64,000 nt of DNA from a virus (Duplodnaviria; Heunggongvirae; Uroviricota; Caudoviricetes), in the IMG/VR virus record IMGVR_UViG_3300037384_000074, positions 20,112 to 84,111 of that record; one strand, given 5' to 3'. Each line of letters starts with the position of its first letter. The stretch's first letter is position 1. Shown one piece after another: positions 14,902 through 62,006 of the stretch. Below the pieces are notes generated by a model that worked only from the letters and a program-made list of their open reading frames with translations, was not told where the DNA came from and did not search any database. Position numbers and translations under genes: made by a program.

Positions 14902-14920
14902 CAATTAAGCTAAATAGAGG

Positions 14921-15697
14921 ATGAAACCAAACAGTAAAAAACAGTATATTCAAGAATTGGCCCCAATAATCCAGAACCTCTTAGATTCTGGACTCTCACT
15001 AAGTGAGGGTTGTACTAAACTGGGATTAATATACCACGCGACCTACGCTTTGTTAAAACGTCATACTAATTTAGTAATATCTACTAAGACTAACGGTAAA
15101 AGTGCATCAACATTAAAGGCCTTTCAAAATAAGATCAAAATTCCTGATTCCGAATTAGAAACGATAAAAGATCTATATTTCAATGAAATGATGTGTTTGA
15201 GCGCAATAGGTAAACGTTATAATACAACAGGTGCGACAATTATGTCTTTTATGAAAAGACATAATATCGTTAGACGAACTCATCTCGAAAACAAAATTCG
15301 AATGCTAGATCGACCTGAGTATAGAGCTCAACTAAAAGATTGGGGTGTTCAAGGATATCTAGCTAGACGAACTACACGAACTAAACCTGAACGATTGTTT
15401 GCAGAATTTCTTGAACGTAATAATATAAAATATGAAGAGCAATTTAGACGAGTAGGTAACAAGCACCCTTACGATTTTCGATTGAAAGACTACAATACGT
15501 TAGTTGAAATAGATGGACATTATTGGCACTCCAAACCTGAACAAAAACTGAAGGATGATATTCATACTAATGATGCAATTTCTAAAGGATTTTATGTGGT
15601 CCGTATTTGCACCAGTCAGTTAAAAAATGATAGTTTTAAAGTTATATTAGAGAGATTTTTGAATGAATGTGGATACTCTGTCGAATTTATCGAATGA
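14921..15697 (+). CDS. homing-endonuclease-like protein (Vsr/DUF559-type PD-(D/E)xK nuclease domain) inserted in the polymerase gene
   Basis: The C-terminus VEIDGHYWHSKPEQKLKDDIHTNDAISKGFYVVRI matches the DUF559/Vsr endonuclease pattern (E.DG..H ... D ... G..VvR). AGAGGA RBS. Different codon and amino-acid usage (K/N-rich) from its neighbours. Confidence 0.55.
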   Translation: MKPNSKKQYIQELAPIIQNLLDSGLSLSEGCTKLGLIYHATYALLKRHTNLVISTKTNGKSASTLKAFQNKIKIPDSELETIKDLYFNEMMCLSAIGKRYNTTGATIMSFMKRHNIVRRTHLENKIRMLDRPEYRAQLKDWGVQGYLARRTTRTKPERLFAEFLERNNIKYEEQFRRVGNKHPYDFRLKDYNTLVEIDGHYWHSKPEQKLKDDIHTNDAISKGFYVVRICTSQLKNDSFKVILERFLNECGYSVEFIE

Positions 15698-18264: not shown

Positions 18265-19611
18265 ATGGAGAAGATGATCCTCTCCTCATTGCTGTTCAAT
18301 GAGGATTATACTCGTAAAGTGCTCCCCTATCTGAAGAAGGATTACTTTCATCAGATGGGGGATCAGGTTGTATATAAGCTGATTCGGGATCACTATGTCA
18401 AATACAACAAGTTGCCGAGTGCAGCTACACTCCAGGTTGATCTTGACAATAGTTCGTTAAAGGAAAATGCATATGATCAAGCAGTCACAGCGATTCAAGA
18501 TCTGTCGAACCCTCATGCAGAATTTGATTGGCTAGTTGATAACACAGAACTATTCTGTCAGAAGCAAGCATTCTATAACGCTCTATCGAAGGCCTCAGGC
18601 CTAATTGAGAGTGACACAGTAGATGATTATGGTCAGGCATTAGGTCTAGTTCAGGATGCTCTTGCGGTTACCTTTAATAATCACATTGGTCACGACTATT
18701 TTGAAGATGCTGAAGCTCGATTTCTAGCATACCATGAGAAGAAAGATCATCTTTCTTGTGATCTACAGATCTTTAACAAGGTCACAAAGGGCGGGTTCAG
18801 AGAGAAATCTCTAACTCTGTTCCTTGCGCCAACTGGCGTTGGTAAGTCGCTTGCTCTGTGTCATATGGCGAGCTCATTCTTGTCTATGGGTAAGAATGTT
18901 CTATATATCACGCTTGAAATGTCAGAAAAGCAGGTGGCTGAACGTATTGACGCCAATCTGCTCGACATTCCCTTTGAGCAGCTTGATAAAATTGAGCGTG
19001 GCGGGTTTATCGCACGTGTAAATCGTCTTCGCAAGAAGACTACAGGACAGTTAATTATCCACGAATACCCTGCTCATCAGGCTCATAGTGGACATTTTCG
19101 TCATCTAATCAACGAATTACGGATCAAGAAAGACTTTGTTCCTGACGTAATTGTAATTGACTATCTAGGAATTTGTGGTTCATCTACAACTTCTCGTAAT
19201 GATAATATGTTCGAGAAGGGCAAGCGGATTGCGGAAGAGATTCGCGCACTTGCACAGGAATTTAAGTGTAGAGCATTCTCTGCAGTGCAGGTCAATCGTG
19301 AAGGCACGAAGGCCGGAGATTTCAGTCTGACTGATATCGCTGAAAGTTGGGGCATTGCAAACACGGCCGACTATGCATACGGCATCGTGGCAACGGAAGA
19401 GCTTTTGAAGCTCAAGAAGTGGAAGATTCTACGTCTAAAGGATCGATACAACAACTATACGACCTATTATCCATCATTTATCATTGGAATTGACCACGAC
19501 AAGATGAGAATGTACGATATTGATAGTGATAATGACGATGAAGATAGTGATAACCCAGTGTTTGACAGTACATCGATTGGCGATCAGAGATTTATGGGCC
19601 TGATCTCATAA
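18265..19611 (+). CDS. replicative DNA helicase (T4 gp41 / DnaB-like)
   Basis: N-terminus MEKMILSSLLFNEDY vs T4 gp41 MVEIILSHLIFDQAY; Walker A FLAPTGVGKS; ITLEMSEKQVAERIDANLLD vs T4 ISMEMAEEVCAKRIDANMLD. Confidence 0.85.
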   Translation: MEKMILSSLLFNEDYTRKVLPYLKKDYFHQMGDQVVYKLIRDHYVKYNKLPSAATLQVDLDNSSLKENAYDQAVTAIQDLSNPHAEFDWLVDNTELFCQKQAFYNALSKASGLIESDTVDDYGQALGLVQDALAVTFNNHIGHDYFEDAEARFLAYHEKKDHLSCDLQIFNKVTKGGFREKSLTLFLAPTGVGKSLALCHMASSFLSMGKNVLYITLEMSEKQVAERIDANLLDIPFEQLDKIERGGFIARVNRLRKKTTGQLIIHEYPAHQAHSGHFRHLINELRIKKDFVPDVIVIDYLGICGSSTTSRNDNMFEKGKRIAEEIRALAQEFKCRAFSAVQVNREGTKAGDFSLTDIAESWGIANTADYAYGIVATEELLKLKKWKILRLKDRYNNYTTYYPSFIIGIDHDKMRMYDIDSDNDDEDSDNPVFDSTSIGDQRFMGLIS

Positions 19612-19632
19612 ATATGAGAAAGGAACACTCTG

Positions 19633-20004
19633 ATGCTTACAATTGCACTAGGCGCTTTCACTTGGATCAAGTCAAACATTAAATGGATTGTTATAGGACT
19701 ATGCGTCATTATGGCGTCCATTACGCTAAACAAACTATATAATATGGTTCTAGAGAATGGACAATATAGAATCCATGTTGAAGAACAGCAGAAAACTATC
19801 GCCAATAAGGACAATATTATTCGGAAACTCGAGCAAGATAAGCTAGATGTTCAGATTATATTGATGGATCGTGATGCGAAAGTCAAAGAGCTTGAGCTTC
19901 AGATGGATGGAATAACTGTTGATCTTGGTTCAGATGCAAACGATCAAGCGCCTGAAGCAATTAAAGAATTCTTCAGGCGCTTGAATAAAAGGTATGTAAA
20001 ATGA
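19633..20004 (+). CDS. inner-membrane spanin (i-spanin, Rz-like)
   Basis: N-terminal TM helix followed by a coiled-coil-prone periplasmic domain; directly upstream of a lipoprotein gene. Confidence 0.55.
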   Translation: MLTIALGAFTWIKSNIKWIVIGLCVIMASITLNKLYNMVLENGQYRIHVEEQQKTIANKDNIIRKLEQDKLDVQIILMDRDAKVKELELQMDGITVDLGSDANDQAPEAIKEFFRRLNKRYVK

Positions 20005-39234: not shown

Positions 39235-39783
39235 TCAGACGTGTTTAAATTTCGGGAATGTATACATTCCACTTGTCGCAAATGTACCTTTGAACCTTGG
39301 ATCTGCACGAAGATATCCGACATCCTTTGTATCTTTACCGCGGAATTCGCGGATCCAAATACCGGTTAGAGCTGCCCCTACGCTGATCTTCTTCGCAAAT
39401 ATCATCTCTTCAAACTCGTGGAAGTGATCTGGAAGGTCATACTTGTCGAAAACGGCACTGTTGCGGATCGGTTCAAGTTTGTATCTGTTGGCGATTCTGT
39501 CACGTGAAAATTCGAGAATCACTGGGAAGTCTGCAGCACGTTGATAGCTTCGTGTGAATGAGATTGTACGCGCTTTCCAAGCACCATCCTCATGATAAGC
39601 CACCTCGACTGCATGTGCTGGGAACTCAATTTGAGGCGGAATAACGGTCCAAGTATTTTGGTTTGAAGAGGAGTGCAGTTCACCGGATTTGATGATGCTT
39701 ACAGCAGCCTTGATATTTGTACCGTGAAAAAGCATATTACGGGCCGATGCGGCTTCGGATATGAATTGAGAGAAGGTTTTCAT
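39235..39783 (-). CDS. ADP-ribosyltransferase-fold protein (diphtheria-toxin/Tpt1-like H-Y-E class), paralogue A
   Basis: N-terminal LFHGTN (the Y/F-H-G-T NAD-binding motif of DT/KptA) with downstream Y and E-F-E-E. One of only two sizeable minus-strand genes in the window. Confidence 0.5.
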   Translation of the reverse strand: MKTFSQFISEAASARNMLFHGTNIKAAVSIIKSGELHSSSNQNTWTVIPPQIEFPAHAVEVAYHEDGAWKARTISFTRSYQRAADFPVILEFSRDRIANRYKLEPIRNSAVFDKYDLPDHFHEFEEMIFAKKISVGAALTGIWIREFRGKDTKDVGYLRADPRFKGTFATSGMYTFPKFKHV

Positions 39784-39808
39784 GACCTATTTATCAACTG
39801 ACATATCA

Positions 39809-40303
39809 TCATTTCAATAGGTCAGACTTGACCGGAAATCCGAAGTGTTCGATTCGCTCGAATGCAGTAGGCGATGCTACGTGGAAGGCTGTTATATAGC
39901 TTCGGATATTAGTCAAGTTTTTGTTAACAATCCGCTCTTCATATTCGTTCATACCGTACACAGGATCGTCCTTTAGATACCGACTCTTCGCCATATGGAA
40001 CGGTACCTGTGTATGATAGAAATTGTAAGTCTGTAACTTGTATCGCTGACGGATTTTTCTTTGGTCGAGCTCTATAACAACAGCATTGATCTTGCTGCGT
40101 GAAAGAGTAGTCGCCCAATCTAAGGCGTATTTGAGACTGCGGGTTAATGATACTACCTTCGTCTTATTGTCATCTTCACCCTCAGATATCCTACCTTCTA
40201 AGGTATTCTGATGCATTATAGACTCGAGTCTATCAACCGTAGTGCCGTGATATAGTGGTGCTGAGTGGCTTTCCGCCAGGAATTCGAGGAAGGTTTTCAT
40301 CAC
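39809..40303 (-). CDS. ADP-ribosyltransferase-fold protein (diphtheria-toxin/Tpt1-like), paralogue B
   Basis: PLYHGTTVDRLESIMHQ..LEG and KVVSLTRS resemble KptA [21 protein letters not shown]...HYVHLS; NEYEE acidic catalytic candidate; shares the MKTF.EF..E N-terminus with paralogue A. Confidence 0.5.
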   Translation of the reverse strand: MMKTFLEFLAESHSAPLYHGTTVDRLESIMHQNTLEGRISEGEDDNKTKVVSLTRSLKYALDWATTLSRSKINAVVIELDQRKIRQRYKLQTYNFYHTQVPFHMAKSRYLKDDPVYGMNEYEERIVNKNLTNIRSYITAFHVASPTAFERIEHFGFPVKSDLLK

Positions 40304-40366
40304 CTATTTATATCCGTTGCCTCAATCTCATTTAGGAGCGATATTATCTTCACGTTCAAATGAGGA

Positions 40367-43213: not shown

Positions 43214-43564
43214 ATGCTCACTAAGCAAGAAATTTTTACCAAGGCGTATGAGGGTCTTAAGGCCCAAGGCTTTGAAAAATCTGCTGGATATGACCTCAGC
43301 GGCAATTTTACATGCATGTATCGCTTTGACAATTTGAAGTGCGCTATCGGCCATTGTATCCCTGACGAGAGGTACAATACTGACCTCGAAAATATCAGAG
43401 CACGTGATCCGATGATTCGTCGGGCTGCAGGGATCCACCCTGACGTGCCAGATGAGTGGCTGGTTGATCTTCAGCATTGCCATGACGCGTCGTTGGATCC
43501 TGAAGATATGAAGCTGCGCCTCTCCGATTTCGCCAGATTTTACGATCTCAAGATCGAGGAATGA
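43214..43564 (+). CDS. hypothetical protein, tandem paralogue 1 of 3 (MLTKQEIF family)
   Basis: MLTKQEIFTKAYEGLKAQGF...CAIGHCIPDE conserved in three consecutive genes. Confidence 0.5.
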   Translation: MLTKQEIFTKAYEGLKAQGFEKSAGYDLSGNFTCMYRFDNLKCAIGHCIPDERYNTDLENIRARDPMIRRAAGIHPDVPDEWLVDLQHCHDASLDPEDMKLRLSDFARFYDLKIEE

Positions 43565-43567
43565 CGA

Positions 43568-43918
43568 ATGCTAACTAAGCAGGAAATCTTCAATAAGGCG
43601 TATGCCGGCCTTAAGGCGCAGGGCTTTCAGCGAGCTGTTCGTGATGCTGGTCCGTTAGCAATTTGTCAGTATCGTGGAAGAAATGGTCTCAAGTGTGCTA
43701 TCGGTCACTTGATTCCTGATGAGAATTACTGCCCAACACTCGAAGGTAAAGGCGCTGAACTATTAGTTGTTCGTGAGGCTGCGAATATTCCACTTGACGT
43801 GCCAATTAGCTTCCTTGTTGATCTTCAGACGTGCCATGACGCTGGCAGTTCTCCGGAAGCGATGAAGCGGTCACTGACCGTGTTTTCTCATCAGTATAAT
43901 CTCAAGATTGAGGATTGA
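43568..43918 (+). CDS. hypothetical protein, tandem paralogue 2
   Basis: MLTKQEIFNKAYAGLKAQGF...CAIGHLIPDE. Confidence 0.5.
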   Translation: MLTKQEIFNKAYAGLKAQGFQRAVRDAGPLAICQYRGRNGLKCAIGHLIPDENYCPTLEGKGAELLVVREAANIPLDVPISFLVDLQTCHDAGSSPEAMKRSLTVFSHQYNLKIED

Positions 43919-44277
43919 AAATGCTTACCCAACAGGAAATCTTTAATAGGGTGTATACCGGTCTTAAGGCTCAAGGCTTTAAGAGGTCGCTTTCAGGGCC
44001 CGATGATGCCGTTTCACGGTGTCGATATCGTGGCGAGGATGGTCTCAAGTGTGCTATTGGGCACCTGATTCCTGATGAAAAATATGAAGAGGGTTTGGAA
44101 GGTCTATGTGCTTCTGTTGTTGAAGTTCGTAACGCTTCAGGCACTAGCGGGATCGATTGGAACTTTCTCGATGATCTCCAGGTTTGCCATGACGAGGGTA
44201 ACACTCCTGCAGATATGGAGAGACTCCTTAAGCGTTTTGCTGCAGATTACGAGCTCGTCATCGAGGAATCGATTTGA
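43915..44277 (+). CDS. hypothetical protein, tandem paralogue 3
   Basis: LTQQEIFNRVYTGLKAQGF...CAIGHLIPDE. Confidence 0.5.
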   Translation: MKMLTQQEIFNRVYTGLKAQGFKRSLSGPDDAVSRCRYRGEDGLKCAIGHLIPDEKYEEGLEGLCASVVEVRNASGTSGIDWNFLDDLQVCHDEGNTPADMERLLKRFAADYELVIEESI

Positions 44278-46522: not shown

Positions 46523-46672
46523 ATGGCTAACATCGTCTACCGCGACAATGCTTTCGAACCGATCGACTGGAAGTATCTCGACATCGACACCGAGATCCAG
46601 TACAAGGAGAACGAGTTCGGCACCATCATCATGGCTTCCTCTGTCGAAGAGGCTGGTCTCGAAGATGCATGA
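46523..46672 (+). CDS. small hypothetical protein (49 aa)
   Basis: GAAGG RBS; start of a chain of three ATGA-coupled mini-ORFs. Confidence 0.3.
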   Translation: MANIVYRDNAFEPIDWKYLDIDTEIQYKENEFGTIIMASSVEEAGLEDA

Positions 46673-46784
46673 GAATTATACACTTCGAGAACGCCTGCCG
46701 CTAATTGAGTATGAGTCTGTAGAATGGATGAAGGTTCATCGTCAGCCGTTCATTGACGCGCTAATAGCGGCTAATTCGCTATGA
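46669..46784 (+). CDS. small hypothetical protein (38 aa)
   Basis: ATGCATGA overlap. Confidence 0.25.
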
Positions 46785-46945
46785 CTGTCAATGTCAAAGA
46801 GTTGATCAAATTGCTCGAAAAGTATCCAGAAGATACTGAAGTGATTATTGATATCGGTCTTGAAAATGTGCCGATTAGTATCAAATACCGCGAAATCAAG
46901 AGTCTCAGATACAACATCGCTGACAAGAAATTGATTATTGGGTGA
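46781..46945 (+). CDS. small hypothetical protein (54 aa)
   Basis: ATGA overlap. Confidence 0.3.
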   Translation: MTVNVKELIKLLEKYPEDTEVIIDIGLENVPISIKYREIKSLRYNIADKKLIIG

Positions 46946-47007
46946 TCGGCACTATTGACCTTCGTCATAAAGGTCGTATAATACTCTCTTAAACAGGGAG
47001 ATAACTT

Positions 47008-47238
47008 ATGGCCAATCTCAAGGGAACTCTGGAAGTTGAAGCGGTAATTGATAGCCGAAAGGGTCTTTCGGAAGATTTCGTACCGGCAGGCTCCATTGGA
47101 TATGTTCTCGGAGTTCATCCCAATGGAGCCGATTGGCTCGTGCACTGGCCTAACGCCGAACGAGCCTACAAGTCTGATTGCCGCACATCTTCGCATGCGA
47201 AGATTACTCTTCGCCCTACAGGCAATCGTCATCCTTGA
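47008..47238 (+). CDS. hypothetical protein
   Basis: GGAGATAACTT ATG. Confidence 0.4.
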   Translation: MANLKGTLEVEAVIDSRKGLSEDFVPAGSIGYVLGVHPNGADWLVHWPNAERAYKSDCRTSSHAKITLRPTGNRHP

Positions 47239-47256
47239 CGATAGACTAAATAGACG

Positions 47257-47706
47257 ATGATCACTTTCAACCAATACATCACCGAGCTCTTCGATAAGGC
47301 CGCACCATACCAGATAGTAAATGAGAAGCTCACTCATTTTGGAGGGTACGTAAGATATCATTTCGAAATTGACTCGCTACAATACGACGCTTATGTTACA
47401 TACTCGTCCAAAGACAAGAGTATCAGCGTGGATTTTAAGCTAAAAAGATCCGATGGAACCTCAACTGTAGAAACTACAGGTGAAGCTGGTCACGACGCAT
47501 CTCTAAAGGTGTTCGGAACGTTAGCTGAGATATTGAGACACGCTCTCGGTAAATGGCCAAAAGCCAGAATCTTGTTCAATGGCGATGGCGATTCTAGAGT
47601 CAAACTGTACCGATCTCTCGGCATGAAGATAGCAAAGATCCTTGGATATAATTACGAGGCTGATGGCGGCGGCAACCATATTTCGATAACACTGACGCCA
47701 AAATAA
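47257..47706 (+). CDS. hypothetical protein, 149-aa family copy A (paralogue of 51979-52428)
   Basis: MITFNQYITELFDK...TTGEAGH...VKLYRSLGMK...TLTPK; about 55% identical to copy B. Confidence 0.5.
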   Translation: MITFNQYITELFDKAAPYQIVNEKLTHFGGYVRYHFEIDSLQYDAYVTYSSKDKSISVDFKLKRSDGTSTVETTGEAGHDASLKVFGTLAEILRHALGKWPKARILFNGDGDSRVKLYRSLGMKIAKILGYNYEADGGGNHISITLTPK

Positions 47707-47765
47707 CAGTGGTCTTCTAATTCAAAATATGATAATCTCCATTAGTTGATAATGGAGATTATCAA
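47707..47765 (+). promoter_or_regulatory. intergenic cassette copy 7 (first 36 nt identical to 52427-52462)
   Basis: ACAGTGGTCTTCTAATTCAAAATATGATAATCTCC then hairpin TCTCCATTA..TAATGGAGA and ATCAA ATG. Confidence 0.55.
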
Positions 47766-48026
47766 ATGTCGATTTTTGACAAAATCCAGAACCGAGAGTA
47801 TGTTAACAAGATGACATATTCATTTGATACTCGAGACGATTATGATGACGAAGGTAATCGCCTGTTTTGGCTGTTTAAGTGCGATCTTGAATCTTACTTT
47901 AGTCAAACTGGAGAGCCGAAGGCGGACATGCTTTTCGAAATAGCCTGTGAATTGGCTCGCAGCAGACATCCGCGCCCTTGCCGACAAGTCGGAGGAGGCG
48001 GAGAGTTGGACGATTCTGTGCTTTGA
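47766..48026 (+). CDS. hypothetical protein
   Basis: 86-aa ORF. Confidence 0.35.
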   Translation: MSIFDKIQNREYVNKMTYSFDTRDDYDDEGNRLFWLFKCDLESYFSQTGEPKADMLFEIACELARSRHPRPCRQVGGGGELDDSVL

Positions 48027-48284
48027 CGACCCTCCGCCTACCCCGGAAGGATACACCCTTGAAGTTCAATGTCAGATGACTGAAGAACGTAATTTCCGAC
48101 AAAAGGTCTTTATCCGAGTCTGTAGAGATAGCGGTTTCAAACTAGAACCGAGTAGAGCCGCACAGTTTGCGGCTCAACTTATTGGTATACATCCGTTTGA
48201 AATCCTAAACGCAATCGGCTGTCTCAACACAATGAACCAGATCGCAGATGGCACTCATCCTGTACTACAAATGGAAGAATATAA

Positions 48285-48650
48285 ATGATCAAGCCTGGAA
48301 CATACACCCAAAATCCATACCAGTCCCATTATGGCCAGGGATCTCTATTAATTGCAGATGAGTTGATTGGCAGAATTCTCGACGACGACTGTATGGCTGT
48401 TCTCTGGAGCTACGATCCACACTGCATCCGAGTATCAACAGGATCGTTGACGTGTGACGGCCACTCTAATCGGATTACAGTGATCGTTAGCCAGCTTGGA
48501 CGTGTCGAAGGCGTTTGGTGGGAGCATAATATATACCTGCCAGATGATGTTAAGGGTGGATCTGGTTCACTAAGACATCGTATGAAGAGCAATCCACAGC
48601 TACTCGATCAGATCGATCTTGACAGGGCTGACCGTTATAGGAGAGTTTGA
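48285..48650 (+). CDS. hypothetical protein
   Basis: 121-aa ORF. Confidence 0.4.
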   Translation: MIKPGTYTQNPYQSHYGQGSLLIADELIGRILDDDCMAVLWSYDPHCIRVSTGSLTCDGHSNRITVIVSQLGRVEGVWWEHNIYLPDDVKGGSGSLRHRMKSNPQLLDQIDLDRADRYRRV

Positions 48651-48651
48651 C

Positions 48652-48801
48652 GTGAATCTGCAAGAAATTTTCGATAAGGTATATCTCGGTCTCAAACAAC
48701 AGAACTTCGATAAGTCGATCAATGTTATACATGGGACTCGAACCTGTCAGTACCGTGAAGTCCATGTAAATAATTTTGTAGCTCAGGAAACGGCCGCATG
48801 A
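48652..48801 (+). CDS. truncated fourth member of the MLTKQEIF family (GTG start)
   Basis: NLQEIFDKVYLGLKQQNFDKS; AGGAGAG RBS before GTG 48652. Confidence 0.3.
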   Translation: MNLQEIFDKVYLGLKQQNFDKSINVIHGTRTCQYREVHVNNFVAQETAA

Positions 48802-48974
48802 TTAACTGGTTTAAAGATCGATATTGGCCAATGGAATATGTCGAATTTGATTTCATTGACATCGTATCCGGAAACAGTGTCAATCGATATCGCACCGCCG
48901 GCACCGGCCAGATTGTGATGGCTGAAAGTCGTTGGTCATTTTTCCGAGTTCCTTCGTCAAAAGGTGTGAAATGA
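48798..48974 (+). CDS. small hypothetical protein (58 aa)
   Basis: ATGA overlaps at both ends. Confidence 0.3.
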   Translation: MINWFKDRYWPMEYVEFDFIDIVSGNSVNRYRTAGTGQIVMAESRWSFFRVPSSKGVK

Positions 48975-49453
48975 ATATCGAACGGTTGATCGAAATCGCT
49001 GAAATCCTCGAGACGCGATCCTACACTGAGCAATTTGATGTAGGATTCAACATGGCGTATGTTATTACGCCAGCCGCCGAACCAACCCACCTAGGCCCTT
49101 TGACAAATAAGGAGGAGCATGAGTGTGGGACGACCTGCTGTATTGCAGGTATCGCTGCGCTTAGATACCGGCCGGAAATGTTCCACAAAGATTACGTCAT
49201 TTATGATTCAGTATTCATCAGCCCGTTGTATGGCGTAGTTGATATTGCCGAGGAGGTTCTTGGGCTAGATTCCGAAACGGCAGAAAGTCTGTTCTTTCCG
49301 TTGGATGGAATAGTCGCAGGCAGCAACATTAATTGGCGTGACATCAAACCTGAGACTGCTGCCAAAGTGATTCGTAATTTGGTCGCAACTGGTAAGGTTG
49401 ATTGGACAACTCCCGTACTCGAGCAGATAGCTGAGACAGCACCACATCTATAG
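48971..49453 (+). CDS. hypothetical protein, Cys-motif family copy A (paralogue of 53312-53743)
   Basis: MNIERLIEIAEILETRSY...CGTTCCIAG shared with 53312. Confidence 0.5.
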   Translation: MNIERLIEIAEILETRSYTEQFDVGFNMAYVITPAAEPTHLGPLTNKEEHECGTTCCIAGIAALRYRPEMFHKDYVIYDSVFISPLYGVVDIAEEVLGLDSETAESLFFPLDGIVAGSNINWRDIKPETAAKVIRNLVATGKVDWTTPVLEQIAETAPHL

Positions 49454-49596
49454 GAGCATTAACAATGTATATCGTTTATTCGTTCGGCGACTACTATTTG
49501 ACATCTATTCCGGAAACGTGGACATGTCCTGGCCCTTCGGACAGTGTTACGCTGATTCCAGGAACCCTGGACCCCAACGAAGATTGAAACAAATTC

Positions 49597-49680
49597 ACTA
49601 GGTATGCAGAATGGGGCTGCCGGCTGCTCATAACGGTCTCCCGCAAGGGCGAGTAGGTTCGATTCCTACACCTAGTACCA
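49597..49680 (+). tRNA. tRNA-like gene, anticodon CAU (Met or Ile-lysidine), encoded CCA, atypical long variable arm
   Basis: 7-bp acceptor stem ACTAGGT/ACCTAGT; D arm GCAG-aatgggg-CTGC; anticodon loop CUCAUAA; T arm GTAGG-TTCGATT-CCTAC; discriminator A then CCA. A 14-nt variable arm and A at position 8 are atypical. Confidence 0.5.
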
Positions 49681-49696
49681 ATTTCCAGAGGTTGTT

Positions 49697-49969
49697 ATGA
49701 TTATAGTTGTCTGGTTTGTTGTGGGGTTTGCGTCCTCAGTATATCTGTGGCGGATAATGTCTTATGATCACTCTGACTTCAAAGTGTCATCCTTAATTGG
49801 ATGTTTACTGGCCGCAATTCCTGCTCCTATCACTTTTGGTGTGGCAGTTGTAAGTGCTATTGTCGAGCTGGCGATGTGGCTATATGACTTGGCCGTCAAC
49901 TGCGACCTCAACAAAGTGATTATTCGAAGAAAGCCAAAATATGGAAACTACGACAATGTCAGATTCTGA
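49697..49969 (+). CDS. small membrane protein (family with 44274 and 44912)
   Basis: Two TM helices. Confidence 0.45.
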   Translation: MIIVVWFVVGFASSVYLWRIMSYDHSDFKVSSLIGCLLAAIPAPITFGVAVVSAIVELAMWLYDLAVNCDLNKVIIRRKPKYGNYDNVRF

Positions 49970-50321
49970 ACCTGAAGATCCGCTACTGAACAGACTCCGA
50001 GCACTGGCGCTTGATGCCAGTCTTTCCGATGGATGGGAAGACACTGAAGCTGATATTCTATTAGCAGTGGAGATTATCAAGAATCTCACGGCTTTCAATC
50101 TGGCCTCTCTCGAGAAAGACAAGACTCATCGTGAAGAGTTGGAACGTTATATCAAGATGATCAAGGATCTTGAAGAGCAGATCAACAAAAAGGACGAAGC
50201 TCTCGATTGGTATGATGAGCACGGTGCTGGTTGTCGTAAACTAGGTAGTGTCGGCGATCCGTTTCGCCACGCACTTGATGCAGATGGCGGAAAGCGAGCT
50301 CGTGAAGCTAGAATGTGTTGA
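49956..50321 (+). CDS. hypothetical protein
   Basis: ORF 49941-50321; acidic N-terminus, coiled-coil. Confidence 0.4.
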   Translation: MSDSEPEDPLLNRLRALALDASLSDGWEDTEADILLAVEIIKNLTAFNLASLEKDKTHREELERYIKMIKDLEEQINKKDEALDWYDEHGAGCRKLGSVGDPFRHALDADGGKRAREARMC

Positions 50322-50371
50322 CCTTAAACTGATGAAGTGATATGATCCTTTATCAACCAAGGGAGACTCCA
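50318..50371 (+). promoter_or_regulatory. cassette copy 8 carrying a sigma70-like promoter
   Basis: TTGACC-N17-TATGAT, then CCTTTATCAACCAAGGGAGACTCCA ATG. Confidence 0.5.
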
Positions 50372-50581
50372 ATGACGATGATTGTGCACTATCCGTCCAA
50401 GAAAGTCCTGAAGGAAAATATCGGCGAGAAGCTCAACTATACCGAGACGTCGATGTTCGGTGAAGAATACAAGAGCAACGGAACTTTTGCTGTCGCGAAT
50501 CGGCCGCATATTACCAAGATTGGTCGAGAATTTTTCGCTGAAGTGACGATGGAAAATGATCTGATCAAGAAGGTCGTTTGA
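50372..50581 (+). CDS. hypothetical protein
   Basis: 69 aa from ATG 50372. Confidence 0.4.
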   Translation: MTMIVHYPSKKVLKENIGEKLNYTETSMFGEEYKSNGTFAVANRPHITKIGREFFAEVTMENDLIKKVV

Positions 50582-50592
50582 GTCGTCAGTTA

Positions 50593-50620
50593 ATACCCTG
50601 GAGAATTCTCCAGGGTATTT
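50593..50620 (+). terminator. palindromic hairpin, possible terminator
   Basis: ATACCCTGGAGAATTCTCCAGGGTAT perfect palindrome followed by TTG. Confidence 0.4.
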
Positions 50621-50651
50621 GCGGGTGTCTTGCCCTGTTTGGAGAAGTCAA

Positions 50652-50807
50652 ATGAACCTTCGTCAGATGAAGACCAATGAACTTGCCCTACTTTTGCACG
50701 GCCTTCGTGCTGTTATGGTTGCTGATGAGGAAGAAACTCGTCAGCGATTGATTTCGAAGCTGGAAAGCGAGCTTGCGGCGCGTGGAGTAGCACTCGCCGA
50801 AGTGTGA
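50652..50807 (+). CDS. hypothetical protein
   Basis: GGAGAAGTCAA ATG. Confidence 0.35.
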   Translation: MNLRQMKTNELALLLHGLRAVMVADEEETRQRLISKLESELAARGVALAEV

Positions 50808-50812
50808 AACTA

Positions 50813-50873
50813 ACAGTGGGCCCTCTTCCGGAAATGGTAGAGGGTCTTTCTGCGTTCAGAACAGGAGATCAAT
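50813..50873 (+). promoter_or_regulatory. intergenic cassette copy 9
   Basis: ACAGTGGGCCCTCT...AGAGGGTCTTT hairpin + CAGAACAGGAGATCAAT ATG. Confidence 0.5.
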
Positions 50874-51233
50874 ATGTCACGGAACTTCAACGTCACCGCA
50901 ATTTATGTGATCACCGAGCAGGTTCCAGTTCCGGATCATTCAGGAAATCCATACACACCTGAAGTATATAAAGCTGGTACAATTTGCGCTCTCGGAGAGG
51001 ATCGTGAATGGTATCTCTATACCCATAGATTCACTGATGAAGGCGATCTACATTCCAGCTCATGGCCTCGAATCAATAAAGGACTTATCAGTCTGTTTCG
51101 TGATTATTGGCGCGTCATAGTGCACGATGATCATCTATATCTACCTTCTGATCGGATTTCTCCTATTAATAAGTCATTTAAGGCTGCTAAAAAGCGCCTT
51201 ATCAAGGGCACTCATGTTAAGGGAGTTGTGTGA
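50874..51233 (+). CDS. hypothetical protein
   Basis: 119-aa ORF. Confidence 0.45.
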   Translation: MSRNFNVTAIYVITEQVPVPDHSGNPYTPEVYKAGTICALGEDREWYLYTHRFTDEGDLHSSSWPRINKGLISLFRDYWRVIVHDDHLYLPSDRISPINKSFKAAKKRLIKGTHVKGVV

Positions 51234-51433
51234 TGACACATTATGCTTTAGCAATATGTGAGAACCGCAGGTGGTCGGTAGTTGCATCACACTCATTATA
51301 TGGAGTCCTTTTAGGTACACGGGATTCCTTATATGATCAAATTCCAATTAAAATGACCAAAATCCTTGTTTTGGAGACGGCCGACCAAGAGGAGATTGAT
51401 CGACGAATCGCAGAATTGAACCGAAAGAAATAA
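51230..51433 (+). CDS. hypothetical protein
   Basis: ATGA overlap. Confidence 0.4.
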   Translation: MMTHYALAICENRRWSVVASHSLYGVLLGTRDSLYDQIPIKMTKILVLETADQEEIDRRIAELNRKK

Positions 51434-51494
51434 TAGTGGACCCTCTTCCAGAAATGGTGGAGGGTCTTAATATGTTCGGTTGAGGAGACATCAA
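51434..51494 (+). promoter_or_regulatory. intergenic cassette copy 10
   Basis: TAGTGGACCCTC...GAGGGTCTT hairpin + GAGGAGACATCAA ATG. Confidence 0.5.
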
Positions 51495-51683
51495 ATGTTG
51501 AAGCTCTGGGAAGTTCGGCAGGATGGTAAGCGAGTCGCTACTTATTACGCGAAGAATGAAAAGCATGCAGTGCAGCGTCATAAGGATGACCAGATGCAAT
51601 ATGCAGCTTCCTTTCGACGTTCCCATGGAATCGGCACACTCGAAAATCTGACCGCTGTTCAGATTGAACCTCATAAGGATTGA
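51495..51683 (+). CDS. hypothetical protein
   Basis: 62-aa ORF. Confidence 0.4.
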   Translation: MLKLWEVRQDGKRVATYYAKNEKHAVQRHKDDQMQYAASFRRSHGIGTLENLTAVQIEPHKD

Positions 51684-51955
51684 ATATGAATGCTCCTTTA
51701 ATTTCTAAGGTTGATCGTCCACTCAAAGGAGTGGATCTATCGCCGTACCTCCCTGATCTAATCAAATTCGACCAGCCTCCATTCGTGCTCGAAATTGGTC
51801 CTTTGGATGAACTTCGGGCTCGAATTTGGCCTCAGTTGGCTGAGCGAACGGTACTAACGCTTGTCTGCATCACTCGTGAAATATACCGAGAGTTGGCGCT
51901 CAGAGCGTTGATGGGTGAATATGTGCCAGAGTATAATGGGGTTGACACCAAGTGA
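51680..51955 (+). CDS. hypothetical protein
   Basis: ATGA overlap. Confidence 0.4.
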   Translation: MNMNAPLISKVDRPLKGVDLSPYLPDLIKFDQPPFVLEIGPLDELRARIWPQLAERTVLTLVCITREIYRELALRALMGEYVPEYNGVDTK

Positions 51956-51978
51956 TTTAATTATCTCATAAATAATCG

Positions 51979-52428
51979 ATGATCACTTTCAACCAATATC
52001 TCACTGAACTCTTTGACAAAGCTGTGCCGTACCAGTCGGTAAAGACTACAATAAACAGCTATGGAAGCTTCACTAAATTTAAATTTACAGTTGGTTCGCA
52101 CTATTTCGAAGTCAATATAGCTTATACGACAGGTGATAATAACATCGAAGTAGACTTTTACCTACTAAACCCTGATGGCAGCACGACAGTAAAAACTACA
52201 GGGGAGGCTGGTCATCAGGTTTCCGTAAAAGTATTTGCCACTGTGGCTGACATTCTCAAGCATGCTCTCAAGAATTGGCCAAATGCTAGAATCACGTTTA
52301 TTGGAGATGGTTTATCTAAAGTAAAACTGTACCGATCTCTTGGGATGAAATTAGCGAAAGTCCTCAATTACAAATATGATGAGCGCGGTGCAGGTGATTG
52401 GATCGGAGTCGTCCTAACACCAAAATAA
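51979..52428 (+). CDS. hypothetical protein, 149-aa family copy B
   Basis: Same length as copy A, with a shared N-terminus (MITFNQY.TELFDKA.PYQ) and C-terminus (KLYRSLGMK). Confidence 0.5.
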   Translation: MITFNQYLTELFDKAVPYQSVKTTINSYGSFTKFKFTVGSHYFEVNIAYTTGDNNIEVDFYLLNPDGSTTVKTTGEAGHQVSVKVFATVADILKHALKNWPNARITFIGDGLSKVKLYRSLGMKLAKVLNYKYDERGAGDWIGVVLTPK

Positions 52429-52486
52429 CAGTGGTCTTCTAATTCAAAATATGATAATCTCCTTTATCAACTGAGGGAGAGTTCAA
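52429..52486 (+). promoter_or_regulatory. intergenic cassette copy 11
   Basis: ACAGTGGTCTTCTAATTCAAAATATGATAATCTCC + TTTATCAACTGAGGGAGAGTTCAA ATG. Confidence 0.55.
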
Positions 52487-52887: not shown

Positions 52888-53322
52888 GTGATTCATATTG
52901 ATTCTATCCGGCATATTGCCAAGCTGATTCGACCCTCTAACGGTGTTCGGGCAAATGTGATGTACCGCGACCCGGAACCTATTCGAATCGCTGCAGATTT
53001 TATCGACCAGGAAGTTGCTCGACGTGACCTTGCACTTAAAACTCCGTGGTCTGAACAGCCACTCGAAGTGTTGTACGAAGCCGTCAATCAGCTTCAAGAC
53101 CCTTATGATCCTAACAGTAAGGATGGCCAACTTAATTACAAGATTGCAGAATCTCTCATGACGATTGAATCCGCTCTGAAACAGCTTGAGGATCTGATCA
53201 GTATGAATGAGACTTATACTGACGATCGTGGAACAGTTTGGACTCGACCAACCGCAGAAGCGTATGCCCGTGCTTGTCGCACGATTGAAAATCTGAGGAA
53301 GGAACACTCTGATGAACGTTGA
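52888..53322 (+). CDS. hypothetical protein
   Basis: 144 aa, GTG start. Confidence 0.45.
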   Translation: MIHIDSIRHIAKLIRPSNGVRANVMYRDPEPIRIAADFIDQEVARRDLALKTPWSEQPLEVLYEAVNQLQDPYDPNSKDGQLNYKIAESLMTIESALKQLEDLISMNETYTDDRGTVWTRPTAEAYARACRTIENLRKEHSDER

Positions 53323-53743
53323 GCGATTGACTGAAATTGCAGCGATTCTCGAGACTGAATCTTACTCCAAAGAGTTGGGCGTTGGGTTCAGCATGGATCG
53401 AATCTTCGGCCACGTGGAAACTATGGAAGGCGTTGAACTCCAATTTTCACATGGTTGCGGAACGGTATGTTGCATTGCAGGACTTGCGGCGGTCAAATAT
53501 ACACCTAATTCATTTTTGGTCGTCGATGGGAAATGTCGTCAAATTTCTGGTTTCAAGAACGGCATCGAGTTTCTCGCAATAACGGCACTTGACCTCAGTT
53601 TTGACGAGGCTGAAGAGCTCTTTTACCCCACTATTGAAGGTGCAGATATAATTGATTATCAAGGAATCTCGCCAAGTGAGGCCGCGAAAGTAATTCGAAA
53701 TTTTATTGAGAATAAGAGGATTGATTGGAGCATCATTCTATGA
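53312..53743 (+). CDS. hypothetical protein, Cys-motif family copy B
   Basis: MNVERLTEIAAILETESY...CGTVCCIAG. Confidence 0.5.
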   Translation: MNVERLTEIAAILETESYSKELGVGFSMDRIFGHVETMEGVELQFSHGCGTVCCIAGLAAVKYTPNSFLVVDGKCRQISGFKNGIEFLAITALDLSFDEAEELFYPTIEGADIIDYQGISPSEAAKVIRNFIENKRIDWSIIL

Positions 53744-59353: not shown

Positions 59354-60552
59354 GCGAGTATTTAGTGAAGCAGAGGGCTATTAGGTATAGATCTCCCACG
59401 CATGCAGGAGGTCGAGAAGGGTACAACGACACCGTCCCTTACCTGAGTTGCTATTGCGGGGACAAACGGCACTCGATGATTCTAGATCAATTCGATGCCT
59501 CTGTTTCACTAAGTATTTGTTGACTTTATACGCCTGTAGATTGAATATCTACGTGCACAGTAGTAAACGGATGTGTGGTGGACCACAGGGCCCTCTGAAA
59601 AGGGCCCGTTCTGGGTTCGATTCCTGGCTCTGGTTTGATCTACAGGCGTATAAAGTCAAGCTGTTTGAAATGTGAATTAGAACTTCTGAACTGAGCTTTG
59701 ATGGTATATCACCTTATGGGAGAATGGCCCATGGGTAGATATTCGGGAACAATCGTATGGAATGCTGCAACATTCCTATATAAACCCCGACCATTTGCAG
59801 ATGGCTCGCTTGAACTAGCGACGAGTCAAGGCTCTGTTCAGAAGTTCTTTAGTGTCATATTCGCAAATTATAGAATACAACGTTGAGTGTTGAATCAAGC
59901 GAAAGAACGGGTCGACCGATCAGGCAACTTCGTGGAAATAAATACACTAGCGGCGAGTTAGGCTACCTGAAAGCAATCCTCGTGTAACAGAGTTAGGGTG
60001 ATGTAAACTGTGGCAAGTAGTGAATTGGTCGAAATTCACGAAAGGATCATAGGCTAAGTTGGATAGTAGTCGAAGAGGTTCGGCCGAACTTTTAGGTGAA
60101 ATTTGGCGATGCAGCATGACAGGTCCAAAAATAAATCCTGCTGTGTAGGTGGAATCCCTACCCCTTACAGATTTGAATTGACTGAGTGACGGTTTCCAAG
60201 GTATGCGAAAGTAGGAGCGTCGTTTCACTCTGAGGATAGCAGAAAAAGGCGGGTAGAGCTTAATAGGCTCCTGTGGGGTTTGCCGCCAGGTATTAGTACG
60301 GAACGTGAGTTTGGCAGAAATGCCGGAAACGGAACTCTCTCCTGAAAGTTATCTGTCCACCGACAATACGAATTGGCTCTCTGGCGAAATGGTAGACGCA
60401 CCTCGCGAAGAGTTGATGGAAGTAGTAAGCGAAGGATATCATGTATTAGCTAGTGCATGATTTGAGAATGCGCTGCGAAACGGGATGCGAAGATTCTAGC
60501 TGGATAGAGGCGCCGCGATACCAGTGAGGAATAATAGCAGAACACCATTGTT

Positions 60553-60614: not shown

Positions 60615-60635
60615 CATTCGTTGATAAATAGGTTC

Positions 60636-62006
60636 ATGCAACCAACTCTCTCACTATATCTAAACACAAATGCCCCTGCTAAAAGAATTCAATTCTTAGG
60701 AGTTGACTTTACAGGATCTGTCGTTGAACTTGTTCTAACGAACCTAGTGACATCAGAGGAGATCACTCTTTCGACAGCAGATGATGAGATCTCAATTGAT
60801 CAAGACATTGTTGTTTGGGATTACGATCAAACAATTTTGGAACAGCTTCCGGTAGGAAATTGGACATCCTTTTCTGTGTATCGCAGTATTGGTGAAACGC
60901 GCGAATTCATTGGGTCCGGTCGCGTCTCCATAATTGCAAATGGTGGATACCAGGTCGACAACGGTACAATGGTTATCAACGTACCAGGTGTTAGAGGACC
61001 TGCTGGTACGCTTGAGGTTGATAGTGTTGTCACTCTCGATCCCGATGAAGATGCATATATTGAAGAGCTCGGTACCAACACTGAGTCCGCGTGGAGAGTA
61101 GGCATCCCTCGTGGATACACTGGGTTAACTCCAGATATAGAGATTTTATCAACCACAACTCTAGCTGCAGGACAGCCCGCCACGGTGACGCTCGATCCGA
61201 GCAGCACGCCGGAAGAGCCGAAGCTGGTGTTCGGGGTGCCGAAGGGCGACACGGGCGCGACGCCGGACATCTCGGTGCTCTCGACCGCCACGCTGGCGCC
61301 CAGCCAGCCCGCCACGGTGACGCTTGACCCGAGCAGCACGCCGGAAGAGCCGAAGCTGGTATTCGGCGTCCCGCGCGGTGACACGGGCGCGACGGGTCTG
61401 ACGCCTGCAATCTCGGTGCTCTCGACTTCTACCCTTGCGCCGGGATCGCAGGCAACCGTCGCGCTCGATCCCTCCAGCACCCCGGAAGCGCCTAAGCTCA
61501 ACTTCGGCGTCCCGCGCGGCGACACGGGAGACACGGGCGCCGCTGCGACGATCGTGATTGCTGGCACGGACACGCTTGCCCCCGGCGCGCCGGCAACCGT
61601 CGTTAATGAGGGCACGTCCGCAGCGGCAAGCCTGCGTGTTGGCATCCCTGCCGGCGTGCAGGGCCTGCCCGGCGCCCCCGGCGAGCCGCTGGCGCTGGTG
61701 GTGAGCGACACGACAGATATCGGCCTCGGTGGATGGTGGGTGGCGCGAGATTATCACGGTGCCGCCACCTGCGATTATCTCCGCGCGGAAATGCTGGTTG
61801 GTGAGGCCGACGCTGTGACGCTTGCCGTGCGGAAGAATGGCGCGACCGTCCGCAGTGGTATCGCACTCGGTGCCGGTGTGACTGTGATCACAGATCTTGG
61901 CCTTGTGCTCGCAGAAGGCGACCAAGTATCCGTACATCGCGTTGGCGGCGGTACGCTCACAGGACCATGGATGATGCTAGTTCAAATCGACGGAAGGACG
62001 CCCTGA
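60636..62006 (+). CDS. tail fibre-like structural protein with tandem 40-aa repeats and a short collagen-like stretch
   Basis: Three tandem copies of (L/P)xxISVLSTxTLAxxQPATVTLDPSSTPEEPKLVFGVPRGDTGxTG; GIPAGVQGLPGAPGEP; GC rises to about 68% within the gene. Confidence 0.6.
   Translation: MQPTLSLYLNTNAPAKRIQFLGVDFTGSVVELVLTNLVTSEEITLSTADDEISIDQDIVVWDYDQTILEQLPVGNWTSFSVYRSIGETREFIGSGRVSIIANGGYQVDNGTMVINVPGVRGPAGTLEVDSVVTLDPDEDAYIEELGTNTESAWRVGIPRGYTGLTPDIEILSTTTLAAGQPATVTLDPSSTPEEPKLVFGVPKGDTGATPDISVLSTATLAPSQPATVTLDPSSTPEEPKLVFGVPRGDTGATGLTPAISVLSTSTLAPGSQATVALDPSSTPEAPKLNFGVPRGDTGDTGAAATIVIAGTDTLAPGAPATVVNEGTSAAASLRVGIPAGVQGLPGAPGEPLALVVSDTTDIGLGGWWVARDYHGAATCDYLRAEMLVGEADAVTLAVRKNGATVRSGIALGAGVTVITDLGLVLAEGDQVSVHRVGGGTLTGPWMMLVQIDGRTP
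61131..61531 (+). repeat. tandem repeat, about 3 x 120-132 bp, inside the tail fibre gene
   Basis: ...GCCACGGTGACGCT(C/T)GA(T/C)CCGAGCAGCACGCCGGAAGAGCCGAAGCTGGT(G/A)TTCGG... is repeated. Confidence 0.7.

Follow-up and report, generated by a model that had tools for sequence, protein, structure and literature searches.

Two related genes of 149 codons, copy A and copy B, are followed by an identical 43-nt tract in a 64,000-nt stretch of a Caudoviricetes genome (IMG/VR record IMGVR_UViG_3300037384_000074, positions 20,112 to 84,111; hereafter the window, with position 1 as its first letter). Our analysis indicates that this tract, the cassette, is the 5' half of an intergenic element of about 60 nt, which extends from the stop codon of one gene to the Shine-Dalgarno sequence (SD) and ATG of the next. 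Pattern searches and an nhmmer profile identified 12 members of this element family in the window, all on the + strand and located between 38.2 and 56.7 kb. In kind, the elements are comparable to the promoter-early stem-loop (PeSL) cassettes of T4-type phages, and we consider it quite likely that a gene pair with PeSL-like regulatory elements, which also serve as crossover points, accounts for the observations as a whole. The window belongs to a distant T4-type phage, and its 38-57 kb portion is a hyperplastic region of small accessory genes. All searches turned up only three related lineages: the window itself, an independent contig of the European Nucleotide Archive (ENA) from another sample (L001), and a 30%-diverged relative (L002).

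The coding sequences of the pair are old. Both open reading frames (ORFs) lie on the + strand, and the preliminary description of this DNA was correct in reporting equal lengths and an identity of about 55%: the proteins, 149 aa each, align without gaps at 55% amino-acid identity. Nucleotide identity between the coding sequences is 62.4%, falling to 38.3% at third codon positions. Nei-Gojobori estimates give dN = 0.35 and dS = 2.3, with dN/dS at ~0.15; because synonymous sites are saturated and this ratio is low, the duplication is old and both copies have evolved mainly under purifying selection. A and B are either old paralogues or alleles that were brought together.

The flanks present a different picture. 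Pairwise alignment reveals an uninterrupted identity of 43 nt at the 3' end (CCAAAATAACAGTGGTCTTCTAATTCAAAATATGATAATCTCC), comprising the final 9 coding nucleotides including TAA (CCAAAATAA) and 34 nt past the stop. The preliminary description had given 36 identical nucleotides after each stop codon; the identity stands, while the length is 34, since the quoted string opens with the last A of the stop and the match extends 9 nt into the coding sequence. This 35-nt string occurs exactly twice in the window (47706-47740 and 52428-52462) and not once in 100 shuffles, and no third copy is present in the window even when 3 mismatches are allowed. At the rate of the coding sequence, the chance of a 43-nt identity is 0.624^43, or ~1.6e-9, and at the third-position rate, taken as a neutral yardstick, that of a 34-nt identity is 0.383^34, or ~7e-15. 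The flank (100% identical) is therefore far better conserved than the gene (62%), and the refuting outcome named in the preliminary description, a flank no more alike than the coding sequence, did not arise. Similarly, the 5' end holds an uninterrupted identity of 22 nt (CGATGATCACTTTCAACCAATA) inside a 75-nt stretch that is 79% identical, which refines the earlier statement that the first ~30 nt are nearly identical; elsewhere in the coding sequence, the longest identical run is at most 20 nt. The suggestion that constraint acts on the flank rather than on the gene holds at the nucleotide level only, as the coding sequence is constrained as well.

The family to which the cassette belongs has a recognizable architecture. 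Its members share a 5' module located directly past the upstream stop, (A)CA-GT[G/T]G[A/T]CC and typically (A)CAGTGG, and a 3' module, TTT-ATCAAC-TGA-GGGAGAG-N-TCAA-ATG, which consists of a leader (TTTATCAAC), the SD and the start codon of the next gene. Two alternative forms of the middle part occupy one register: a hairpin whose loop is GAAA, and a sigma-70-like promoter. Searches with the 3' module (TTTATCAACTGAGGGAGAG) returned 6 matches against 0.03 expected, and the hairpin pattern returned 7 against 0 expected; repeat finding grouped the B cassette with copies of ~63 nt at 38250, 38722, 40839, 41019 and 42624. Profile and pattern searches found no convincing member in the replication-gene block at 0-38 kb, and in L002 the members follow gene orientation. 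The proposal that the cassette is the recombinogenic or regulatory unit is supported by this anatomy and by a hybrid junction relative to L001, described below, with one correction: the unit is the ~60-nt element of a 12-member family and not a free-standing 36-nt cassette.

The hairpin form is found in 7-8 members and consists of 12 bp closed by a GAAA loop, of the type GACCTTCTCGGA-GAAA-TCTGGGAAGGTC, followed by 3-5 T. In an alignment of 11 copies drawn from three genomes, 90% of cells are paired, and both partners have changed in 5 pairs; covariation scores 0.415, compared with 0.23 in shuffles, of which 0 of 500 attain the observed value. For instance, the hairpin at 51436 and its counterpart at 7107 of L001 differ by a compensatory swap from A-U to U-A. 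Because paired sites covary and G-U pairs are tolerated on the + strand, the stem points to an RNA hairpin formed in the sense transcript, and the hairpin-type elements resemble a leaky terminator or attenuator, a role that is predicted. These same elements were considered as promoters and rejected, since GAAGGT fills the -10 position. A search of Rfam gave no match at the gathering threshold or at E <= 1.

The promoter form is clearest at 50317, 56580 and 46955, where a generic promoter scan detected sigma-70 boxes. No gaps are needed to align cassettes A and B with 50317 (TTGACC-17-TATGAT) and 56580, and in this alignment they read G-TGGTCT-17 nt-TAATCT-CC-TTT-ATCAAC, with a TG one base 5' of the hexamer. 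Two elements of L002 fall into the same register. One of them, TTGACT-17-TAATCT-CTC-TTTATCAAC-AGGAGAG, has the -10 hexamer and leader of the cassette together with a consensus -35, and the other, TTGAGG-17-TACATT, lies at the same distance from the stop of the L002 149-aa gene and is followed by a palindrome before GGAG. The promoter assignment for the cassette is based on its register with 50317, 56580 and these two L002 elements, and promoter activity is, on balance, likely. More generally, the cassette appears regulatory by its anatomy, because it starts at the stop codon, lies in register with promoters and hairpins, and runs into the SD and ATG of the next gene.

The arrangement of the promoter-like core also suggests a control of translation. 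The cassette ends in TCTCC, which is complementary to the SD of the next gene. In element A, the 3' arm of a perfect 15-bp inverted repeat contains the GGAG SD (47754-47757) of ORF 47766, and the fold has a predicted energy of -22.2 kcal/mol (z = -4.9); in element B, this palindrome is absent, and the stem comprises only 9 bp (UCUCCUUUA with UGAGGGAGA). The same overlap between -10 and anti-SD sequences is present in the promoter-type elements of L002 (ATCTCTC with GAGAGAT, and CTCTC with GAGAG). Read-through transcripts would mask the SD of the next gene, through 15 perfect bp in A and 9 in B, and transcripts begun ~7 nt past the -10-like hexamer would leave it free; in the predicted fold of such a shorter RNA, the 5' arm is absent and the GGAG SD is unpaired in a loop. 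We infer the promoter activity, the transcription start and the masking of the SD from these sequence features. A separate observation concerns the loop of the copy A repeat, which is GTTGA in the window (47745-47749) and TCAAC in L001 (4566-4570), exact reverse complements between identical arms. This inversion is of the kind made by template switching or recombination in a palindrome. The family consensus, ATCAAC, agrees with the L001 loop, so that the loop of the window probably represents the derived state.

Comparison with L001 reveals recombination at an element. The contig is collinear with the window at 92-97% identity and carries the exact copy A protein and a 97% version of copy B, both genes being followed by the same cassette. 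Directly after cassette B, L001 contains 1.29 kb with three ORFs absent from the window; a hairpin-type element (L001 8950-9014) closes this insertion, and the homologue of ORF 52487 comes next. Element B of the window is equal to the left L001 element up to ...GATAATCTCC and to the right one from TTTATCAACTGA... on, and is thus an in-register hybrid of the elements that flank the L001 insertion. Because the junction is in register, it is attributed to homologous exchange between family members; hybrids of this kind are also the hallmark by which shuffling through PeSLs has been defined. A second indel, window 51467-51968 with two ORFs, starts at the 3' edge of the hairpin at 51436. Additionally, the 149-aa gene of L002 is a mosaic, near-identical to A from ~-25 to +60 (an A-like stretch of ~85 nt at the 5' end) and closer to B in its 3' half.

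Other differences among the relatives were recorded beside these. The comparison of window 46600-49730 with L001 is patchy, with zero-difference tracts of 650, 342 and 616 nt separated by hot patches at 47047-47094 (13 of 48 positions), 48699-48722 (9 of 24) and 49524-49569 (9 of 46), a pattern typical of mosaic recombination with more distant alleles. The tract at 47095-47744 was considered as a recent module transfer, an idea that was rejected in view of the similar tracts of 342 and 616 nt in the same block. Aligned with window 49697-50321, L001 6516-6644 lacks 49722-50208, an illegitimate deletion that is not element-mediated and by which ORF 49697 is fused, from its start, to the terminal part of ORF 49941. 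L002 has a second member of the 149-aa family (721 to 273, - strand) with a B-type 5' patch (TAAATAATCGATG), whose frame is broken after 58 codons by a frameshift or assembly error, and a cassette-like sequence, TTGTCC...AACTCTC-TTTATCAACTGATGGAGAG, lies past its stop at L002 212-265.

Taken together with efficient homologous recombination in the phage, short conserved linkers would allow the elements to act as crossover points, and such crossovers would move gene-plus-element modules while keeping the element copies alike. We favor homogenization by recombination or gene conversion over site-by-site selection, with selection then maintaining function; an equivalent possibility is that two alleles were brought together by crossovers in conserved flanks. 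The preliminary description had offered selective constraint or gene conversion as the cause: the flank identity behind it is confirmed, and we infer, rather than observe, which of the two produced it. Several points weigh against a combined role in expression and exchange. Three of the five indels relative to L001 are not bounded by elements (a deletion at a TGGT microhomology that fuses ORFs at 49721/50208, a junction within a stop/start overlap at 50581/51225 and a replacement at ~45.4-46.7 kb), and the junction case is one clear in-register event among the three lineages available. The cassette matches 6 of 12 sigma-70 consensus positions, was not listed by the generic promoter scan and could be a decayed element without promoter activity. 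Most hairpin-type members lack a usable -10 and are strictly terminator-like hairpins, not composites of promoter and stem-loop. Finally, the elements are evidently under selection, as shown by 50304-50418, which has zero differences from L001 inside an 8%-diverged block, and conversion is unneeded for some of the conservation.

This last point leads to the explanation by functional constraint, in which the 34 nt are a binding site, for example an operator including the palindrome or a promoter read by an RNA polymerase that the phage has modified; purifying selection would hold every base, and neither conversion nor recombination would be involved. All four cassette copies in two phages are identical, other elements such as 50304-50418 are also conserved above background, and the 15-bp perfect inverted repeat of copy A overlaps the -10-like hexamer in an operator-like manner. 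We nevertheless judge pure constraint unlikely: the palindrome is absent from copy B, the spacer is identical too although promoter spacers normally vary, and the positional equivalent in L002 has the same layout yet matches the cassette at only ~37% of positions without gaps. Other family members are merely 65-92% alike, and the identity tract ends at -9 and +34 in the window versus -6 and +47 in L001. Given the L002 value, the family range and the differing tract ends, selection alone is insufficient to explain the identity of every spacer base. A recent duplication with rapid diversifying selection on the protein, leaving flanks too young to differ, would suit an injected or anti-defense-like family, to which a candidate targeting sequence at the N-terminus and the fusion of the domain to toxin-like domains in relatives might point, and proteins of this type are often fast-evolving. 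It is scarcely credible and was rejected on account of the saturated dS of 2.3, the third-position identity of 38%, the dN/dS of ~0.15 and the gap-free alignment of two ORFs of 149 aa. The involvement of a dedicated mobility system, with the cassette as an attC-like site of a recombinase or as a homing endonuclease target with co-conversion, is also very improbable. Homing endonucleases are present in the window (SegE-like, 6142-6573; HNH/Vsr-like, 14921-15697), an ORF with NUMOD3 lies near the locus in L002, and a helper protein acting on PeSL stem-loops was raised as a possibility by Arbiol et al. (PMC2839356); however, no recombinase or endonuclease adjoins either cassette, cassettes A and B lack the family hairpin, and the hybrid junction lies in register inside shared sequence, the outcome expected of ordinary homologous recombination. 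The probability of chance similarity or of a collapsed or chimeric repeat in the assembly is negligible, in line with the absence of matches in 100 shuffles and a chance probability of <=1e-9. An artifact is excluded by L001, an independent assembly from another sample in which both copies carry the same cassette in the same arrangement at a different distance from each other (3117 nt versus 4722 nt in the window).

The reading of the elements as regulatory linkers that double as crossover points agrees with what has been described for the PeSL cassettes of T4-type phages (Arbiol et al. 2010, PMC2839356; Comeau et al. 2014, PMC4122927). Like PeSLs, they are short intergenic repeats that cluster in a hyperplastic region of small ORFs, extend from the upstream stop (here TAA) to the SD and start codon (here GGAG...ATG or GGGAGAG...ATG), and contain a stable stem-loop of variable position, here a covarying stem of 12 bp, with 15 bp in A and 9 bp in B. 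PeSLs combine sigma-70-like boxes with a stem-loop that overlaps them or lies between them; here, the boxes are clear in some members and match at 6 of 12 positions in the cassette. Both kinds of elements are located at indel or replacement junctions of close relatives, where they leave hybrids, as in the case of the 1.29-kb insertion of L001, and PeSLs include "degraded" half-elements, a further likeness. In contrast, the stem here is GACCTTC...GAAGGTC with a GAAA loop and the published one is polyG/polyC, most members here have hairpin or promoter in one register and not both, a conserved leader (TTTATCAACTGAGGGAGAG) lies within the repeat, and cassettes A and B have a weak -35 and an anti-SD 3' end. 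No homology was found to the published PeSLs of RB49/phi1, T4/PST or KVP40/nt-1, as the consensus descriptions differ and the phage collection gave no nucleotide match. By anatomy and by comparison of genomes, the elements are PeSL-like in kind and not homologous; promoter and terminator activity and the mini-circles that arise when adjacent elements recombine, which characterize PeSLs (PMC2839356), are predictions for the elements described here.

A parallel for the masking of the SD is provided by the T4 genes e, soc, 49 and I-TevI, in which read-through transcripts are translationally silent and a promoter located within the hairpin yields active ones (PMC3014915). In both systems, a hairpin pairs the SD with upstream sequence, and the transcript from the internal promoter lacks the 5' arm, which is a prediction for the elements described here. 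The internal promoter of T4 is late and the hairpin silences early read-through, whereas the predicted promoter here is sigma-70-like, that is, of early type, and the read-through would come from an upstream gene with a late-promoter-like motif.

For specialists in T4-type genomes, the main result is an expected one, since such systems are already known from T4 relatives. It extends the idea that PeSL-like linkers drive expression and serve as crossover points to a rare, distant, environmental T4-type lineage. Because the elements share no sequence with published PeSLs, they support a general, convergent design over a peculiarity of coliphages and vibriophages. They also provide a clean testable case, with two 43-nt direct repeats 4.7 kb apart and a sister genome that carries different cargo at the same junction. 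As a by-product, the uncharacterized domain DUF6934 becomes tentatively linked to the internal-protein and injected-effector biology of T4-like phages. Leads of greater novelty are DUF6934 proteins as possible capsid-targeted proteins, late-promoter motifs abutting the AUG, and the hairpin loop inverted between sister phages.

The 149-aa proteins score below the gathering threshold of 27 bits for Pfam DUF6934 (PF22028), with 20.1 bits for copy A and 24.9 for copy B, and two relatives, P0007 (28.7 bits) and P0004 (162.6 bits), pass it; by profile linkage, the window proteins can be classified as divergent members of this family. A profile built from the family retrieved 352 proteins at E <= 1e-3, the first of which matches DUF6934 in Pfam at E = 7.8e-48. 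Standalone relatives of ~145 aa were found, and many of the proteins are multi-domain phage proteins with 3-6 tandem DUF6934 domains; one has a Zeta-toxin/AAA domain. The AlphaFold (AF2) model, with a predicted confidence score (pLDDT) of 73, has an order of secondary-structure elements that resembles GNAT proteins. The solved GNATs SpeG and GCN5 were the top but weak matches in a PDB structure search (E >= 3e-3, TM ~0.4). Stronger matches, with E-values down to 8e-8, came from the viral structure library; among them are multi-domain proteins of Agrobacterium phage Atu_ph07 and, from T4-like phages, Alt-like RNA polymerase ADP-ribosylases. Searching the PDB by sequence gave nothing useful.

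The N-termini of the two proteins, MITFNQYITE and MITFNQYLTE, resemble the capsid-targeting sequence (CTS) of T4, MKTYQEFIAE, which is cut from internal proteins by the prohead protease (PMC8442874; PMC3012670). A CTS-like start is present in 34 of 75 standalone relatives, and both 149-aa proteins are basic, with isoelectric points (pI) of 8.7-9.4. The Q-x-(L/V)-x-E-L-F-D part of the motif, however, recurs in internal repeats of multi-domain relatives and may be a helix of the domain with no targeting signal; because of this recurrence, the chances that the CTS-like N-terminus is a targeting signal appear about evenly balanced. The homologue in Vibrio phage nt-1, ORF252, has the domain only at its C-terminus and no CTS-like start, and gives no help with the anatomy of the flanks. 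In the window, only four ORFs have a CTS-like N-terminus, namely A, B and two minus-strand paralogues (39783 and 40300). These paralogues (39238-39783 and 39812-40300; 182 and 163 aa, pI ~9) start with MKTFSQFISE and MKTFLEFLAE. Their L(F/Y)HGT, S(F/L)TRS and E(F/Y)EE motifs recall those of ADP-ribosyltransferases, and Pfam and PHROG gave no match for either ORF.

The surroundings of the pair invite a comparison with the internal-protein (IP) loci of T-even phages, which are highly variable and flanked by PeSL-like elements (Arbiol et al., PMC2839356) and which have a conserved CTS (Repoila et al. 1994 as described in PMC2839356; CTS in PMC8442874, PMC3012670). The shared traits are small basic proteins whose sole strongly conserved part is an N-terminus of ~10 residues, of the form M-x-T-F/Y-x-Q/E-F/Y-I/L-x-E and ending in a protease-type (I/L)-x-E motif, and several diverged copies per genome with nucleotide-conserved 5' and 3' flanks in a plastic region. 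The body of the protein differs, being DUF6934 with a GNAT-like predicted fold and unrelated to T4 IPI, IPII and IPIII, as does the recurrence of part of the motif in internal repeats. By analogy, the A/B locus looks like a counterpart of the T-even IP loci in a distant lineage.

Both copies are preceded by a motif that resembles the late promoters of T4 (TATAAATA at -13 to -6) and of Aeh1 (CTAAATA; PMC1524935). The window contains 9 occurrences of TAAATA-N4-6-ATG where 2.0 are expected, and 0 of 100 shuffles reach 9 (785-797, 6130-6144, 11593-11605, 14911-14923, 39781-39793 and 40298-40310 on the - strand, 47247-47259, 51969-51981 and 60625-60638). Seven of the nine sites precede long ORFs that lack an SD: the four CTS-like ORFs, a SegE-type GIY-YIG endonuclease (6142), an HNH/Vsr-type endonuclease (14921) and a tail-like protein (60636). 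In the four CTS-like ORFs, the motif is (C/A/G/T)ATAAATA or CTAAATA and ends 4 nt before the ATG. At that spacing, transcription would begin no more than 1 nt away from the A in the AUG, and our hypothesis is that the late mRNAs are leaderless; a search of the available literature found no paper linking leaderless mRNAs to T4-type late promoters. The 5' patch would then combine promoter, start codon and the codons of the N-terminal motif, an overlap that would explain its nucleotide conservation and its use as a homology arm. A bolder and rather doubtful proposal is that the DUF6934 149-aa proteins form a widespread, unrecognized class of capsid-targeted injected proteins, made late from leaderless mRNAs without an SD. 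Each gene would be a portable "internal-protein module", with the 5' patch and the 3' PeSL-like promoter as homology arms to swap or stack alleles.

Table 1. Positions of the gene pair, the intergenic elements and associated features in the window.
Feature	Start	End	Strand	Remarks
Hairpin-type member	38250	38312	+	
Hairpin-type member	38722	38784	+	GTTGACC 5' arm
Variant-hairpin member	38947	39009	+	
Hairpin-type member	40839	40901	+	Followed by T5; terminator-like in generic scan
Hairpin-type member	41019	41081	+	
Hairpin-type member	42624	42686	+	Of the window members, nearest to the element that closes the L001 insertion on the right
Promoter TTGACC-16-TATAAT (predicted)	46955	46982	+	GACCTT/AAGGTC stem in spacer; upstream of ORF 47008; identical in L001
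Late-promoter-like CTAAATAG (T4/Aeh1 type)	47246	47253	+	Ends 4 nt before copy A ATG; no SD between
5' patch A	47255	47276	+	22 nt; encodes start of MITFNQY; tract from ~-25 to +60 near-identical in 30%-diverged L002
Copy A	47257	47706	+	149 aa; N-terminus MITFNQYITE; divergent DUF6934 member; GNAT-like predicted fold
43-nt tract, 5' half of element A	47698	47740	+	By alignment; identical to 52420-52462
Promoter-like core A	47710	47738	+	TGGTCT (-35-like), 17-nt AT-rich spacer ending TGa, TAATCT (-10-like); in register with 50317 and 56580
Perfect 15-bp inverted repeat, element A	47730	47764	+	Arms 47730-47744 and 47750-47764, loop 47745-47749; 5' arm overlaps -10-like hexamer
ORF served by element A	47766	48026	+	86 aa; phrog_10980
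Promoter-type member	50317	50374	+	TTGACC-17-TGaTATGAT with TTTATCAAC leader; identical in L001 within 8%-diverged block
Hairpin-type member	50816	50876	+	Different leader
Hairpin-type member	51436	51497	+	3' edge is left junction of 0.5-kb indel relative to L001
Late-promoter-like ATAAATAA	51968	51975	+	Ends 4 nt before copy B ATG
5' patch B	51977	51998	+	22 nt; same as 47255-47276
Copy B	51979	52428	+	149 aa; 55% identical to copy A; N-terminus MITFNQYLTE
43-nt tract, 5' half of element B	52420	52462	+	Contains promoter-like core 52432-52460
3' module of element B	52463	52489	+	TTTATCAACTGAGGGAGAGTTCAAATG: leader, SD and start of ORF 52487; common to six other elements; recombination junction relative to L001
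ORF downstream of element B	52487	52885	+	132 aa; phrog_25491; hairpin-type elements precede the same gene in L001 and L002
Promoter-type member	56580	56639	+	TTGACC-16-TATAGT

The assignment to a distant T4-type phage is consistent with the gene content of the window. Almost every gene lies on the + strand, and the first 35 kb contain genes for a primase, ribonucleotide reductase, a split PolB, a DnaB-type helicase, tRNA nucleotidyltransferase, RNA ligase and NAD-dependent DNA ligase. PolB is split (13372-14901/15814-16875) by the ORF of the HNH/Vsr-like endonuclease, which itself has a late-promoter-like motif. A tblastn search with PolB matched ~2,660 phage records, overwhelmingly T4-like phages of enterobacteria, cyanobacteria, vibrios and rhizobia, with Rhizobium phage RHph_I1_18 as the best match (47%). 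No head or protease genes were identified in the window.

Searches for further relatives were carried out at several levels. Megablast of 8 kb against 50,697 phage records returned no match, no viral or metagenome contig searched contained the exact cassette core, and a protein-guided search for the locus in viral contigs gave nothing, as did a look-up of the JGI protein of the window itself. Word-indexed protein searches with copy B and the downstream 132-aa protein recovered only the same three lineages. Among viral contigs, 17 single matches to a 16-nt probe from the 3' module were dismissed as chance, as they had no blastn or tblastx similarity to the window; similarly, 4 metagenome matches to a 5'-patch probe all fell inside an unrelated gene on the other strand and were dismissed.

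The region at ~38-57 kb is packed with small ORFs and includes at least five families of diverged paralogues. Sets in this region are located at 43214-44277, 44274/44912, 44507/45686, and 48971-49453 and 53312-53743, with a fragment at 48619-48801. They include a tandem triple of ORFs of 116-118 aa with 48-56% identity, with a truncated fourth copy at 48619, and a pair of 160 and 143 aa (39% identity) located 1.3-1.7 kb downstream of A and B, respectively, whose position hints at an old segmental duplication.

Other features of the window are of minor relevance to the pair. ARAGORN predicted a tRNA-Met at 49597-49680 (84 nt, with a long variable arm and an encoded CCA) and a tRNA-Phe at 59565-59636; Rfam reported no tRNA in the window at the gathering threshold or at E <= 1, and L002 has a normal-looking tRNA-Met at the equivalent place. 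A sequence resembling a tRNA 3' end (GGTTCGAGTCCTGGGAGGGCCACCA) lies near 60590, upstream of ORF 60636. The leaders of the unrelated ORFs 19633 and 53312 (19610-19635 and 53289-53314) are 92% identical over 26 nt, AAAT(A/C)TGAG(A/G)AAGGAACACTCTGATG, and appear to be another shared translation-initiation region outside the main element family. Lastly, three tandem repeats of 141 nt (74% identity) occupy 61112-61525 within the tail-like ORF 60636-62006, with a G+C content of 0.55, above that of the rest of the window.

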